A DNA stretch of 64,000 nucleotides from a virus, in the IMG/VR virus record IMGVR_UViG_3300017987_000005, positions 105,157 through 169,156 of that record. One strand, given 5' to 3'. The position numbers and the translations under genes were made by a program. The notes under the pieces are model-generated. The model was given only the letters and a program-made list of their open reading frames with translations, had not been told where the DNA came from and searched no databases. Below are positions 55,529 through 62,544 of this stretch, one piece after another (position 1 is the first letter of the stretch; each line of letters begins with the position of its first letter).

Positions 55529-55728
55529 TTATCCTCCTTTTGCAAGTGATTGCAATCAGCTCCGACAGGCTTATCCCCCGGAGCGAGTAGTACAATCTTC
55601 CCGCAACGCTTACATCTCCACTTATTCCTCGCCATGATAAATCCTACATCATCATCTTTACATTTTTCCCACTCATCGTGCAGACAAAATATCCGCGCAA
55701 ATAACCGAGATAATAATCTCTTAATCAT
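55525..55728 (-). CDS. Small Zn-binding protein
   Basis: FCLH...CKRCG. Confidence 0.65.
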   Translation of the reverse strand: MIKRLLSRLFARIFCLHDEWEKCKDDDVGFIMARNKWRCKRCGKIVLLAPGDKPVGADCNHLQKEDK

Positions 55729-56609
55729 CGGTGCCGAGTCAGCACTTCTTCGATATCACGAATAAGCATGGACTTGTTATTTACGTCCTTACTGATAAGC
55801 TCATCCAGGTTTCCAAAGTGCTCCTCTAAACAACGATGGAGCAAATCAATAATAGCATCATGGTCAGGACGCTCCCGAAGCGGAGAAGACTCATACAAAC
55901 CTTCCAGATACTTCTCCTTACGCTTGAACAAGTCTTCAATCTCATCCAGAGTCATGTCTCCACGATGAACAGCTTTAATCTGCTCCCGAGCGCGAGTCAG
56001 GTCAACATCTCCATCCTTAAGAATCTGCTCGCATTCATCAAGCAGACGGATGATATGTCCGGCAAACTTTACATCGAATCCGAACTTCTCAACAATAGCT
56101 TTGCGCTTCCCCTGACGGTTCTGCGATTTCGCTTTATTCAACTGGCTCCAAGCGTATCCTTTGAACTTGAAGAATGCTCCCTTATGAAGAAACATCTTAC
56201 GATTCACGCGAACCATCTCCCCGATACGCGTGGACTTCAGAACATACTCCTGTTTCGTAAACAGGCTGTCAACCATGTTCGGATTGTTCTCCGCAAGCAG
56301 TTTGAAGTATTTTACAATATTAAACAACTGGATATCGACATCGAGTCCGTCATACGACATTCCGTGCTTTTGAAGTTGGTCGAAATTCGGGAACTTCTTG
56401 TGGTATCCGTAAATGAATCCGTGATGAAACGGGAACACAATATCCTTCGGCGGAATCGTGAAACCGTACAGGTCATAATCCGATTTCTCGGTATACGTAT
56501 CATAAGCACGGCTCCCCATCATCGTGATATACTGGGCATTCTCCAGAATCCACGCTTGAACTGAGGGGTCGCTCTTAATCCCCTGATTTACGGTGTTCAT
56601 TACGCTCAT
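55725..56609 (-). CDS. Pol-beta superfamily nucleotidyltransferase (YcgL/RlaP-like)
   Basis: GSRAY...SDYDLYG, NPNMVDSLF, FKGYA, GFDVKFAGHIIRLL. Confidence 0.9.
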   Translation of the reverse strand: MSVMNTVNQGIKSDPSVQAWILENAQYITMMGSRAYDTYTEKSDYDLYGFTIPPKDIVFPFHHGFIYGYHKKFPNFDQLQKHGMSYDGLDVDIQLFNIVKYFKLLAENNPNMVDSLFTKQEYVLKSTRIGEMVRVNRKMFLHKGAFFKFKGYAWSQLNKAKSQNRQGKRKAIVEKFGFDVKFAGHIIRLLDECEQILKDGDVDLTRAREQIKAVHRGDMTLDEIEDLFKRKEKYLEGLYESSPLRERPDHDAIIDLLHRCLEEHFGNLDELISKDVNNKSMLIRDIEEVLTRHR

Positions 56610-57778: not shown

Positions 57779-58204
57779 CTAAGTTCCAGGTCTTTGCTTA
57801 ACATCGGGAAAATGCTCACTCAACAACTCGTCAGGTGTTTTCCCGTCCATTGGATATTTCTCTTTCAATTTCTTGCACATATCACAATTATCCGGGTGCG
57901 TACGGTATGGGTCTTTATTGCACCAGATATGATGACGATTCTTATATAAATCCTCCGACATCAATGCTCCTCCGAGACGAAGCGTCGTCGGGTCACACTG
58001 CTTCGCTGCAATCGCAATCTCGGCTCCGCGAATACGGTCAACAAACTCTCCGGTATTCGTTATAAATCCTTGATTCGAAGTCCCTTTTCCCTTGAACTTC
58101 CCGTCCGCTCCGTACTGAATAATTATCCGTGAATGGTTGCGACCGGTGTAGACTTTCCCGTCATTCCCGAGAATCGCTGCATCCTCTATTCTGAGGTCGG
58201 ACAC
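57779..58204 (-). CDS. Hypothetical protein
   Basis: QGFITNTGEFVDR...SEDLY. Confidence 0.75.
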   Translation of the reverse strand: MSDLRIEDAAILGNDGKVYTGRNHSRIIIQYGADGKFKGKGTSNQGFITNTGEFVDRIRGAEIAIAAKQCDPTTLRLGGALMSEDLYKNRHHIWCNKDPYRTHPDNCDMCKKLKEKYPMDGKTPDELLSEHFPDVKQRPGT

Positions 58205-58443
58205 GCCCCTACCTCCTCCCGCAGATAATACAGACGAGCATCCGGCTCATTATCCACAGACTTATCCTCGACAATGAGCATGATTTTGACATCGCTGGAA
58301 TCCGATATTTTCAGGTCTTCGTTTTCGCTGAAAAACAGATTGTTAGCTTGGATAATCCGAGTGACTTCTTCATCGGTCGGTATATGACTAAGCTCAGTCA
58401 CTATCCGCTCTTTCCACGAGTCGTATACAGCGTATCTTGACAT
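58186..58443 (-). CDS. Hypothetical protein
   Basis: SD GGAGAGTGA before ATG 58443. Confidence 0.65.
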   Translation of the reverse strand: MSRYAVYDSWKERIVTELSHIPTDEEVTRIIQANNLFFSENEDLKISDSSDVKIMLIVEDKSVDNEPDARLYYLREEVGACPTSE

Positions 58444-58459
58444 ATTCACTCTCCGCAAA

Positions 58460-58972
58460 TTAAATATTTGTGTATATTTTTCTATTAATTATTTCTGATA
58501 TATGACCTTTAGAGGTCTTAAAATCTTTAGCAATACTTTTCAAAGAATCTCCCCCGACCCTACGTTTACGTATTTCCTTTATTTGAGAATCAGAAAAGCG
58601 CCGTCTCACAGAAGCGGCTTTGAAAGCTGTCTTAATCCTGGCGTCAGAAGGTGCGTCCATCATATTCTCGCTATGCGTCCCAATTCCAATATTATCCCAA
58701 CTATTATCTAATTTATCACTATTAAAATGCCTTACTTCAATCTCGTCATCAAAAATACTATCTCCAAATTTCTGGTATGCTTGTAAACAATGGACCGATA
58801 ATCCACAAGTTTTTTTGCCAACCTTGACAGATATAGTATGATATCCTTTCGAATTCACTCCTCCGATAAGCTTCTTACCTAACGGGTTATGGGGAATTCC
58901 GTCTTTAGATACTCTATACCCATCCCTGTAAACACGCAAAAGTATCTTCGACATTTTACTATCTCTGCGCAT
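58460..58972 (-). CDS. Free-standing HNH homing endonuclease with C-terminal HTH
   Basis: VH...EVRHFNSDKLDNSWDNI..GTHSENM; AT-rich gene. Confidence 0.9.
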   Translation of the reverse strand: MRRDSKMSKILLRVYRDGYRVSKDGIPHNPLGKKLIGGVNSKGYHTISVKVGKKTCGLSVHCLQAYQKFGDSIFDDEIEVRHFNSDKLDNSWDNIGIGTHSENMMDAPSDARIKTAFKAASVRRRFSDSQIKEIRKRRVGGDSLKSIAKDFKTSKGHISEIINRKIYTNI

Positions 58973-58992
58973 ACCGCCCCTTAATTAAAAAC

Positions 58993-59080
58993 TTGCGGAG
59001 GGAGGATTCGAACCTCCGAGGACTTGTGGTCCTACGAGCTTATGAGACTCGCGAGCTAAACCAGACTACTCTACTCCGCA
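58993..59080 (-). tRNA. tRNA with CAU anticodon (Met/Ile2-like) and a long variable arm, 88 nt, CCA not encoded
   Basis: Acceptor TGCGGAG/CTCCGCA, D stem GAGT/GCTC, anticodon stem CGAGT/GCTCG with loop CTCATAA, V arm AGGAC-CACAA-GTCCT, T arm GGAGG-TTCGAAT-CCTCC. Confidence 0.92.
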
Positions 59081-59086
59081 TCATAT

Positions 59087-59461
59087 TCAGTTATTCAGAA
59101 ACTTATTCCTCAACGCTAAGGCTTCCTCGTAATACTTCATCACTTTCTCAGTATCTTCTTTATTCAAAGTACGCATACTCATAAAGCAGGGGAATCCATT
59201 GACTGCTCCGGGTCCCGCTTTATCCATATACTCATAAATCATACATATATTCTGATGCTTCAACTGGTCAGCGGTCTTATCATCCATAAGAGCGAGAATC
59301 ATAAAAACATGTGGGAGCAAATCCTTATTCTCAACCTGACGGTCGCAGAATATCTTCCCTTCAACAATCCCGAGCGCTATCTCCTTAAGCACCGAATCCT
59401 CCTTCGGCACATAATCAAGCGGTTCTTCTTTGTCTGTTTTCTTATCGCTCTCGTCGGTCAT
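59087..59461 (-). CDS. Hypothetical protein
   Basis: YEYMDKAGP..VNGFP; start likely ATG 59461. Confidence 0.7.
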   Translation of the reverse strand: MTDESDKKTDKEEPLDYVPKEDSVLKEIALGIVEGKIFCDRQVENKDLLPHVFMILALMDDKTADQLKHQNICMIYEYMDKAGPGAVNGFPCFMSMRTLNKEDTEKVMKYYEEALALRNKFLNN

Positions 59462-59462
59462 A

Positions 59463-60593
59463 TCATTCCTTATCAGGAACATCCAGTTTGAATAATTCTC
59501 GACACACGTAAAACACTTTCTCAATAGCGTCGTCGCGCATCTTCGCCCACTTCTTTTTGAAACTCAGTTCACGAACTCCGATATACTTCTTATATTCGGG
59601 AGTAGGGTCTGCTTCCGGAATACGGAGCGATGCTTCCCCGAACCACCAGCTCCAGCTTACTGCTCCCTGCTTAACATGGTGGTCTTTTGAAAGCAAGTTC
59701 ATTACAATGCGTCCCGGAAACGTATGCATATCATACGCAAACCAGTCCACTTCATCAATGTGAAGCGGTTCGATAGCATCGATAAAACTATCATCCTTCA
59801 ATGCAGTATCTTCGTATCCGTCACGGAGCATCCTGAGTAATGCTACGAGTGTTAAATCAATATCGACTTTGCTGTTACTTAAAAGCTCGTCCATAACTGC
59901 ACGAGGAGCTTCCTGTTTCCCAATAGGTTCGTCAAACACGCGTCCGATAGCTTCGAGTCCATCTTCCTTCCTGGCGACTGCGAACATAGTCGAAATGACT
60001 TTCGACAAATCCCCGTCCTTCCAATGGTCTTTGAAAAACATCAGGTCAGTAATCTTCTCGTATTCCTTTGTATCTTTGACTTCGTTAAAAGCACGACAAC
60101 AATGTCCGTCCTTCTGCGACTTCGCAAGAGTATAAGTTACTCTTAGAGGATGCTCCTCAACATGTTGATACAGGTTCATACACGTATATACATCTTCAGG
60201 AATAATAACTTTCAAACGACGAATAAGTGATGCTGGCTGCATGTCGTGAAGCGCTTTCGCTGCGCGGACGGCTTTCTCAGCATATCCCCGGCGAATATAT
60301 TTCTGCATCGCACTCTTATATATCCCGACAGTCGCCATGTAGTCGAGATAATACTCCCCGACAATCTCCTCGCGGGAGATGCATTCACGGAGGAAGCGCA
60401 ACATCGATTTGCGGTTCTTCCCGTCCTTCTCAAGCTGAACGAGTTCTTTCATCTCCTTGACGGTGATTTTCTTCTTCTCGTCCTGCGCGCGCAGAGACTT
60501 CTGAATCTGCGGGATAGGCTTCTGCATCAAGTCGTCGTATACTGGCTTTCCCCTGTGCTTAGAGATAATATCATCCATTGATTCGAAAGGCAT
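59463..60593 (-). CDS. RarA/MgsA C-terminal-like protein lacking the AAA+ domain
   Basis: SAMQKYIRRG...A...RRLKVIIPEDV and AYDMHT..GR; no Walker A. Confidence 0.7.
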   Translation of the reverse strand: MPFESMDDIISKHRGKPVYDDLMQKPIPQIQKSLRAQDEKKKITVKEMKELVQLEKDGKNRKSMLRFLRECISREEIVGEYYLDYMATVGIYKSAMQKYIRRGYAEKAVRAAKALHDMQPASLIRRLKVIIPEDVYTCMNLYQHVEEHPLRVTYTLAKSQKDGHCCRAFNEVKDTKEYEKITDLMFFKDHWKDGDLSKVISTMFAVARKEDGLEAIGRVFDEPIGKQEAPRAVMDELLSNSKVDIDLTLVALLRMLRDGYEDTALKDDSFIDAIEPLHIDEVDWFAYDMHTFPGRIVMNLLSKDHHVKQGAVSWSWWFGEASLRIPEADPTPEYKKYIGVRELSFKKKWAKMRDDAIEKVFYVCRELFKLDVPDKE

Positions 60594-60648
60594 TTCACTC
60601 TCCTTTTAACGTACGCTTGTATTATATCATATATTTAGTATATGTCAA
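60594..60648 (-). promoter_or_regulatory. Strong sigma70-type promoter/RBS module, copy 2
   Basis: TTGACA-16 nt-TATAAT with extended TG, then ACAAGCGTA...AAGGAGAGTGAA. Confidence 0.85.
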
Positions 60649-62256: not shown

Positions 62257-62544
62257 CTAACACCACACTACTTTATTGTCACGAATAAAATAGTGAGACT
62301 TGCACGGCTCATGTGAATTATAAACAGATGGGGATAAAGTAACATTATCCCCGCTCCGGGCATAAGTCCAACAATAAATCCCATCCTGTGCAATCGGAGT
62401 AACTGTCAACGCTCCGCACCCACAGCAGCACAAGTGGATAGCTGTCCCGTAATATTCTGAAACATATAGTTTTCCATGCTCTTTATCCTTCGGAATCTCT
62501 TTAACAAAAACAGGTTCCAATTCAGTAAGTCTTTCCATCGTCAC
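62257..62544 (-). CDS. DUF6527-like protein
   Basis: HLCCCGCG...VTLSPSV...CKSHYFIRD.KVVW. Confidence 0.8.
   Translation of the reverse strand: MTMERLTELEPVFVKEIPKDKEHGKLYVSEYYGTAIHLCCCGCGALTVTPIAQDGIYCWTYARSGDNVTLSPSVYNSHEPCKSHYFIRDNKVVWC

Follow-up and report, generated by a model that had tools for sequence, protein, structure and literature searches.

The DNA analyzed here, referred to as the window, is a stretch of 64,000 nucleotides (nt), bases 105157-169156 of the virus record IMGVR_UViG_3300017987_000005, which is complete at 183,648 bp and has direct terminal repeats. It holds one transfer RNA (tRNA) gene, called by ARAGORN at 58993-59080 on the minus strand with the anticodon CAT (genome coordinates 164149-164236). 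This gene combines the body of a bacterial initiator tRNA with a long variable arm. We suggest, with a probability of roughly 0.6, that it encodes a functional phage tRNA from a bacterial-type initiator tRNA-Met lineage, in which a stable hairpin replaced positions 45-47 of the variable loop. As judged from sequence comparison, it is a divergent and somewhat relaxed member of a large phage class. The gene and its two most informative parts are:

58993..59080, minus strand: tRNA gene with a CAU anticodon, an initiator-type body and a long variable arm, without an encoded CCA (ARAGORN, RF00005, fold)
59042..59044, minus strand: anticodon CAU (tRNA nt 37-39) inside the loop CUCAUAA
59019..59033, minus strand: variable-arm hairpin AGGAC-CACAA-GUCCU (fold; covariation in an alignment of relatives; orthologue on a related contig, L340)

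The tRNA is 88 nt long and scores 52.9 bits against Rfam family RF00005, for which the gathering score is 29. The fold of lowest free energy (-34 kcal/mol, z = -3.6) adds a fifth hairpin to the cloverleaf, and 0 of 200 shuffles fold as well. The acceptor stem has 7 bp, with a paired U1-A72 followed by G2-C71, C3-G70, G4-C69 and G5-C68, and the discriminator base is A73. U8 and A9 are present, the 4-bp D stem includes A11-U24 and U13.G22, and the 11-nt D loop carries A14, G15 and G18G19. G26 stands opposite U44, while the anticodon stem consists of C-G, G-C, A29-U41, G30-C40 and U31.G39 and thus has no three consecutive G-C pairs. Together with the 5-bp T stem, which closes the loop UUCGAAU, this gives a 7/5 acceptor/T branch and not the 8/4 or 9/3 arrangement of allo-tRNAs and tRNA-Sec. 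The variable region spans 17 nt in place of the short 5-nt loop of initiators. It holds the 5-bp hairpin, directly bordered by U44 (59034) and C48 (59018), with zero unpaired bases before C48. No CCA is encoded, as A73 is followed by GUUUUU. A preliminary description, made by a model from the letters and a list of open reading frames (ORFs), had listed this anatomy (7/5 architecture, GCGGAG-type acceptor, A11-U24, CTCATAA, A73, U1-A72, G26-U44 and a 5-bp arm on C48), and every detail of it holds. Its reading of an initiator-like body with a long arm is likewise borne out; the minus-strand location and the missing CCA are points beyond that description.

The comparison with bacterial initiator tRNA-fMet (E. 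coli metZWV/metY type) shows how much of the body is retained. Shared are CUCAUAA, A73, the acceptor pairs G2-C71, C3-G70, G4-C69 and G5-C68, A11-U24 and G30-C40, as well as the class I core formed by U8, A14, G15-C48, G18G19 and the T loop UUCGAAU; moreover, the relatives of the window tRNA are mostly mismatched at 1:72. The window tRNA differs in having a 15-nt hairpin for positions 45-47, U1-A72 for C1xA72, A29-U41 and U31.G39 for two G-C pairs, and no encoded CCA. In addition, its gene is phage-borne and lies in a protein-coding operon beside an HNH gene.

That this structure is maintained is indicated by an alignment (A1) of 21 subfamily members that share N44, the 5-6-bp stem, the loop and C48, in which pairs were counted against the cloverleaf plus the arm. 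In this alignment, 96.5% of the cells are paired versus 73.2% in shuffles (0 of 500 shuffles reach the observed value), and the pairing falls to 37-51% when the 3′ partners are slid. Two-sided changes are found in 19 of the 26 pairs. In the arm helix they occur in 5/5 pairs, each represented by four to six pair types, and 99% of the helix cells are paired. All 21 members have C48, G2-C71 and A11-U24, and 18 of them lack a pair at 1:72. The anticodon was addressed separately with a scan pattern limited to the D-arm motif and the T arm with a long spacer between them. This anticodon-free scan gave 36 unique matches, with CAU in 29 and the full CUCAUAA loop in 28; every match with an initiator-like acceptor start (N-G-C/U) has CAU, and the seven without CAU are unrelated tRNAs or matched by chance. 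The retention of CAU in a scan that does not ask for it indicates that AUG decoding is under selection in the class. Collectively, selection maintains the cloverleaf, the extra arm and the CAU loop in the class at large as well as in a syntenic orthologue (see below).

The preliminary description had proposed a search of phage tRNAs for CAU together with a long variable arm. Such a search, run on viral contigs with a broad pattern (CAU loop, 23-31-nt spacer, GGTTCRAATCC T arm), matched at least 118 loci and uncovered a large, phage-enriched class. Among the matches listed, 101 parse as cloverleaves and 53 are unique and initiator-like, the latter term being used here for G2-C71, C/U3-G70 and A/U11:U/A24. 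Within this set of 53 listed matches, 1:72 is mismatched in 41, a weak A-U or U-A pair in 11 and C-G in one, while the pair G30-C40 occurs 50 times, A73 44 times and an encoded CCA 12 times, and G73 is absent. The hairpins in the arm region of the same set are longer than those in shuffles (mean stem 4.04 bp vs 2.87 ± 0.15), and the arms differ considerably in geometry from one class member to another. For the subfamily with U31.G39, a complete scan detected 75 loci, of which 50 are unique and initiator-like and 21 have the arm geometry of the window gene; many members of this subfamily lie on contigs of 150-500 kb. In relatives, the long-arm initiator-like tRNA sits within ordinary tRNA arrays. 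Scanning cellular genomes with the same broad pattern returned, among the matches listed, mostly archaeal intron-bearing tRNAs and a different Burkholderiaceae class with G1-C72, together with about four initiator-like long-arm examples, located on contigs of metagenome-assembled genomes. The broad viral and cellular scans show phage enrichment and are not to be read as totals. The window tRNA has the features that define the class, i.e., an N-G-C-G-type start, A/U11:U/A24, CUCAUAA, G30-C40, A73 and a 3-7-bp arm between position 44 and C48. The label "chimeric" given in the preliminary description is misleading, as the gene is no isolated hybrid: it belongs to a phage class that is widespread and conserved in structure.

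Two further observations concern long-armed tRNA(CAU) genes in general. One 253-kb jumbo-phage record (G003; L337, L339) carries a long-armed as well as a short-armed initiator-like tRNA(CAU), about 63 kb apart. The distinct class with G1-C72 has the start GGGCCGG-AC-GCCG, a CTCCGAAAGGACAYC-like arm and an encoded CCA. It is conserved across Burkholderiaceae (L151, L164, L177, L178, L181, L200, L208 and L216, from Paraburkholderia, Ralstonia and Cupriavidus) and is found in phage loci too (L031, L060, L063, L116 and L121).

The locus of the window gene has counterparts on two contigs, the metagenome contig L340 and the more distant contig L341, which can be compared through the following features of the operon in the window:

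60621..60648, minus strand: sigma-70-type promoter match, TTGACA, 16-nt spacer and TG-extended TATAAT, 12/12 (consensus match only)
59463..60593, minus strand: 376-amino-acid ORF, first gene of the operon, no family match; syntenic marker with an 84% identical homologue in L340
59087..59524, minus strand: 145-amino-acid ORF that ends 6 nt upstream of the tRNA 5′ end; homologues in L340 (63% identity) and L341
58460..58972, minus strand: HNH homing-endonuclease gene, beginning 21 nt downstream of the tRNA and preceded by a Shine-Dalgarno sequence of its own (Pfam HNH_3 7e-07, phrog_59 2e-18)
57779..58204, minus strand: 141-amino-acid ORF, phrog_839; homologue directly after the tRNA in L340 and directly after the 145-amino-acid homologue in L341

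On L340, the homologues of the 376- and 145-amino-acid ORFs are followed by an orthologous 90-nt tRNA(CAU). In its acceptor, anticodon and T stems, five pairs differ from the window copy, four by two-sided changes and one by a one-sided change, and no pairing is disrupted. Its arm has another sequence, with six pairs and a GAGA loop, and is still paired, which adds two further two-sided changes. U1-A72, A11-U24, U13.G22, G30-C40, U31.G39, U44, C48 and A73 are kept, and the L340 tRNA encodes CCA. The idea that a CAAAA-like sequence of the arm loop is essential was rejected on the basis of the GAGA loop in this closest orthologue. The L340 tRNA is directly followed by the homologue of the ORF at 57779-58204, without an HNH gene, and the locus has an extra 111-amino-acid ORF. 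On L341, the 145- and 141-amino-acid homologues are five bases apart, with neither tRNA nor HNH gene between them. The regions compared (L340:1900-2310, L341:640-1401 and window 57779-59524) represent a variable spot, and they form a series from an empty site (L341) via a tRNA without an HNH gene (L340) to a tRNA with an HNH gene and a 90-amino-acid ORF (the window). From these comparisons, the tRNA appears as an accessory gene under structural constraint, and the HNH homing-endonuclease gene evidently represents a later or separate insertion.

Other searches for related loci gave little. A protein search of viral contigs with the 376-amino-acid ORF found nothing, and that with the 145-amino-acid ORF found two distant loci, without a tRNA and without synteny. 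A fixed-spacing pattern for near-identical copies of the tRNA had 0 matches in viral contigs. The HNH protein had no match in a tblastn search of all collected viral loci, suggesting that the HNH gene does not travel with this class of tRNA; within the genome it has distant paralogues only.

The virus is a tailed phage, with genes for sheath, baseplate, tape-measure and portal proteins. Among isolated phages, the best match of the tail-sheath protein is Bacillus phage BCD7 with 30% identity, and cultured relatives this distant do not allow a host assignment. At the DNA level, the 6-kb neighborhood of the tRNA gave only a weak 110-bp match to a crAss-like phage among isolated phages. The genome has 45 tRNA genes that cover all 20 amino acids (ARAGORN). 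They sit in two arrays, at 0-5 kb and 178-183.5 kb, and the gene at 58993-59080 is the only one outside these arrays. It is also without an encoded CCA, which approximately 39 of the 45 genes have. Exactly three tRNAs in the genome have the anticodon CAU:

Genome 179223-179300: Ile2-pattern tRNA with G1-C72, G3-C70, C4-G69 and C5-G68, C-G at 11:24, GC/CG/AU at 29:41/30:40/31:39, CCA encoded
Genome 183218-183294: elongator-tRNA-Met-pattern tRNA with G2-C71, C3-G70 and U4-A69, C-G at 11:24, GC/CG/UG at 29:41/30:40/31:39, CCA encoded
Genome 164149-164236: initiator-type tRNA, the gene studied here, with U1-A72, G2-C71, C3-G70, G4-C69 and G5-C68, A-U at 11:24, AU/GC/UG at 29:41/30:40/31:39, CCA not encoded

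Since only the last of these combines A11-U24 with G30-C40, the gene appears to fill the initiator slot of an otherwise complete set. As to the remaining tRNAs, a tRNA-Ile(UAU) at genome 178893-178967 lies beside the Ile2-like CAU tRNA, giving the phage two routes to read AUA. Two tRNAs with leucine anticodons have short variable loops, i.e., class I shape (genome 3822-3894, CAA, 73 nt, without CCA; genome 183391-183466, UAG, 76 nt, with CCA), and thereby mirror the long-armed CAU tRNA of this phage.

The phage also carries genes related to tRNA production and RNA repair. An RtcB-family RNA ligase adjoins the 0-5 kb tRNA array (genome 7849-8931, minus strand; 285.8 + 96.4 bits in one 395-amino-acid open frame), and an RlaP-family nucleotidyltransferase is encoded at window 55725-56609, three kilobases from the tRNA. 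Together, these two suggest a capacity for RNA repair. Between two tRNAs of an array, at genome about 182485-182683 on the minus strand, lies a 199-nt RNA resembling class A RNase P RNA; its score against RF00010 (52.5 bits, E = 1e-15) is under the gathering score of 100, and it spans model positions 1-366 in heavily shortened form. The ligase, the nucleotidyltransferase, the small RNase P RNA and the 45 tRNAs indicate that the phage invests heavily in making and repairing tRNAs. Searches of its own genome found no peptide deformylase, formyltransferase (Fmt), CCA-adding enzyme, TilS or Rnl2-type ligase. With no phage-encoded CCA-adding enzyme, Fmt, deformylase or TilS, the enzymes of the host must serve.

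The following pathway can be proposed for the tRNA. The strong promoter at 60621-60648 would drive its transcription together with that of the two upstream ORFs; an intrinsic terminator-like site is present neither between this promoter and the tRNA nor near the gene. RNase P and 3′ processing would cut out the tRNA, to which a host enzyme would add CCA. Host methionyl-tRNA synthetase (MetRS) would then charge it with methionine via CAU and A73, and host Fmt would be expected to formylate it because G2-C71, C3-G70, G4-C69, A11-U24 and a weak 1:72 pair are present. The formylated tRNA would be used in the ribosomal P site at AUG starts, with G30-C40 acting as a minimal anticodon-stem signal. 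EF-Tu may also accept the tRNA, since U1-A72 can pair, and thereby bring it into elongation. In terms of known determinants, the window tRNA has those for the formylase (G2-C71, C3-G70, G4-C69 and purine11:pyrimidine24), an enzyme that reads the 1:72 mismatch and R11:Y24 (PMC9976931). The formylase tolerates a weak 1:72 pair, and a tRNA-fMet with A1-U72 supports growth of E. coli (Monestier et al. 2017, PMC5393177). In the anticodon stem, the middle pair G30-C40 is enough; E. coli can live on an au/GC/gu mutant, with some loss of fitness (Shetty et al. 2017, PMC5389676). The engineered or natural variants in these two studies thus share with the window tRNA G30-C40 as the only remaining pair of the three and a weak A-U at 1:72; they differ in having normal 5-nt variable loops and in that G31.U39 and A1-U72 were tested, versus U31.G39 and U1-A72 here.

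The amino acid attached would by far most likely be methionine. MetRS identity resides in the CAU anticodon and A73, both present in the window tRNA, and the CAU anticodon is sufficient for E. coli MetRS (PMC9976931). Profile hidden Markov models, built from 2,201 ARAGORN-called tRNAs in the collected phage loci, give the window tRNA 64.3 bits for the long-arm and 47.4 bits for the short-arm initiator-like CAU model, compared with 16.2 bits for Ser, 13.7 bits for Tyr and 7.1 bits for Leu. The preliminary description had raised another possibility, a mistranslating tRNA that is charged by SerRS or LeuRS through its Ser-type arm and so reads AUG as serine or leucine. Its remark on "Ser geometry" holds insofar as phage tRNA-Ser most often (48/84) has an arm flanked by a single unpaired base on either side (N44 and N48), whereas this state is rare in phage tRNA-Leu (2/93), where 81/93 have (0,1) or (1,2); in phage tRNA-Tyr the commonest arm class (18/34) has three unpaired bases on the 3′ side. 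G2-C71 would also fit, and serine identity rests chiefly on the variable arm with G73 and not on the anticodon, with E. coli SerRS reading tertiary shape (PMC9976931). However, 66/84 phage tRNA-Ser have G73, while the window tRNA has A73 and G73 is absent from about 100 relatives (0/53 among the matches listed and 0/50 in the U31.G39 subfamily). The body likewise is not Ser-like, as it has A11-U24 in place of C11-G24, a class I-type 4-bp D stem and the low Ser score, and the conserved CAU is the dominant determinant for MetRS (PMC9976931). The wide variation in arm geometry across the class argues against selection for SerRS docking. For leucine, A73 is present, but the (1,1) arm and the Leu score do not fit. 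A15-U48 is the rule in tRNA-Leu, and the core pair here is G15-C48. Hence, charging with serine or leucine, and the misreading of AUG with it, is unsupported and in our judgment highly improbable. The suggestion that the tRNA is a tRNA-Ile2, whose C34 is converted to lysidine by host TilS such that AUA is read, fares no better and is just as improbable. CAU and A73 are compatible with it. The determinants of a TilS substrate are C4-G69 and C5-G68; the acceptor of the window tRNA with C3-G70, G4-C69 and G5-C68 is instead of the Met/fMet type. Moreover, a separate CAU tRNA with G3-C70, C4-G69 and C5-G68 is encoded in the genome together with tRNA-Ile(UAU), and the phage itself has no detected TilS.

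Several findings weigh against an initiator role. The 1:72 mismatch of initiators is replaced by the Watson-Crick pair U1-A72, which is paired in only 3 of the 21 close relatives and also in L340. Of the three G-C pairs in the anticodon stem only G30-C40 remains (A-U/G-C/U.G), and position 31 is a pyrimidine (U31.G39), unlike in the au/GC/gu mutant tested in E. coli. A tRNA-fMet with U1-A72, in work attributed to Schulman and Pelka (1975), reportedly becomes a substrate for peptidyl-tRNA hydrolase and binds EF-Tu, both of which would weaken exclusive use as an initiator. Furthermore, no phage Fmt, deformylase, TilS or CCA-adding enzyme was found in the genome that would tie the tRNA to a pathway; and the tRNA is dispensable in at least one relative (L341). 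An alternative is an elongator or dual-purpose tRNA-Met of initiator descent that is delivered by EF-Tu mainly to internal AUG codons, which we regard as unlikely. The rejection of initiators by EF-Tu depends on the absence of strong 1:72 pairing (PMC5393177), and U1-A72 pairs, with one of the three G-C pairs left. Short-arm phage tRNAs with the same D-arm motif have U1-A72 in 21/70 and three G-C pairs in 3/70, raising the possibility that initiator constraints are relaxed in the whole phage clade. On the other hand, the genome already has an elongator-type tRNA-Met with C11-G24, and in the close subfamily 1:72 is unpaired in 18/21 and A11-U24 present in 21/21, both marks of initiators and the formylase (PMC9976931). 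G30-C40, which is essential for initiator function (PMC5389676), is present in 50/53 of the matches listed. A role outside translation, as a tRNA-shaped decoy or sponge for toxins or nucleases that recognize tRNA-fMet, or for an RNA-surveillance protein, would need no charging at all. The solitary position in a protein-coding operon away from both tRNA arrays, the missing CCA (vs approximately 39/45), the absence of the tRNA from L341 and the investment of the phage in RNA repair (RtcB, RlaP) are in keeping with such a decoy. Yet CUCAUAA, A73, G2-C71, C3-G70, the T loop, G15-C48 and G18G19 are intact and conserved, the L340 orthologue encodes CCA, and tRNAs of the same type in relatives sit in ordinary tRNA arrays, which together make a decoy improbable. 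The preliminary description had also mentioned reading of AUA via lysidine as a variant of misreading; it is unlikely in view of the separate Ile2-like CAU tRNA and tRNA-Ile(UAU) discussed above.

The loss of the three G-C pairs was considered as a feature specific to long-armed tRNAs and rejected, given their scarcity in the short-arm relatives. In the matched comparison between tRNAs with the same D-arm motif, U31.G39 is found in 20/26 long-armed and 9/70 short-armed tRNAs, an enrichment that may simply reflect common descent.

Provided that the tRNA acts as an initiator, what is the arm for? It leaves the standard core contacts in place, i.e., G15-C48, U8-A14 and G18G19 with the T loop. Class II tRNAs routinely pass through the P site. 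MetRS, like other class I synthetases, docks on the side of the D arm, and the variable arm should therefore point into the solvent. The most likely purpose, by analogy with other phage tRNAs, is that host factors able to inactivate canonical tRNA-fMet would act poorly on a phage initiator with such an arm, while contacts with MetRS, Fmt and the ribosome stay intact. More specifically, the arm and U31.G39, which lies beside the site where VapC-type toxins cut tRNA-fMet, might together act as an anti-defense device that keeps the initiator usable yet invisible to host toxins; this we put forward only tentatively, as a possibility. In this scenario, the phage would draw on start-codon tRNA of its own while abortive-infection responses are under way. 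The preliminary description had likewise thought of a Met tRNA remodeled to evade host nucleases or toxins. The anti-defense purpose of the arm is pure inference, and the evasion idea rests here on context, namely RtcB ligase, RlaP nucleotidyltransferase, the small RNase P RNA and the 45 tRNAs. Phage tRNAs have been proposed to escape VapC-, PrrC- and colicin-type cleavage by differing from host tRNAs, and where the VapC of a host is directed at tRNA-fMet, its phages usually do not encode that tRNA (van den Berg et al. 2023, PMC10264068). The tRNAs described there differ from the host by point changes in the anticodon loop, whereas the window tRNA has a canonical loop and its changes are the added arm and the altered 31:39 pair.

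With respect to the surroundings of the gene, the perfect extended promoter at 60621-60648 is unusual and suggests that the operon may be read early by host RNA polymerase. Farther upstream, a 95-amino-acid ORF on the minus strand (window 62257-62544) matches DUF6527 (1e-21).

Long variable arms in bacteria are, according to textbooks, confined to Leu, Ser, Tyr and Sec tRNAs, and the initiator is among the most conserved tRNAs. With these class II tRNAs the window tRNA shares the long paired arm, which, as in the majority of phage tRNA-Ser, leaves only N44 and N48 unpaired; it differs in its 4-bp D stem with A11-U24, A73, Met-type acceptor, conserved CAU and low scores with the Ser, Leu and Tyr profiles. 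Long arms combined with anticodons outside Ser, Leu and Tyr are known from allo-tRNAs and (8/4) phage tRNA-Ser/His, some of them phage-borne (Mukai et al. 2017, PMC5389517), and, as far as these are described through that paper, from eukaryotic noncanonical V-arm tRNAs (Hamashima et al. 2016). The tRNAs of Mukai et al. have an 8/4 or 9/3 structure, G73 or U73 and serine identity, in contrast to the 7/5 structure, A73 and Met/fMet type of the window tRNA, and the terms fMet, initiator and tRNAMet were not found in the main text of PMC5389517. In the literature searched, which covers few subscription journals and hence is not proof of absence, no account of a long variable arm on an initiator-type tRNA turned up.

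What appears to be new is therefore an arm on an initiator-type tRNA that is kept by compensatory evolution, with relatives on scores of contigs from phages, in many cases jumbo phages. The example in the window supplies a clean evolutionary series (L341, L340 and the window) and, within a single finished genome, a complete set of three CAU tRNAs that can be interpreted. If the tRNA does function in initiation, MetRS, Fmt, IF2/IF3 and the P site would all tolerate an initiator with the shape of a class II tRNA, a property that would be useful in the design of orthogonal initiators. If the arm blocks host toxins directed at tRNA-fMet, it would represent a new kind of phage counter-defense, acting at the first step of translation.

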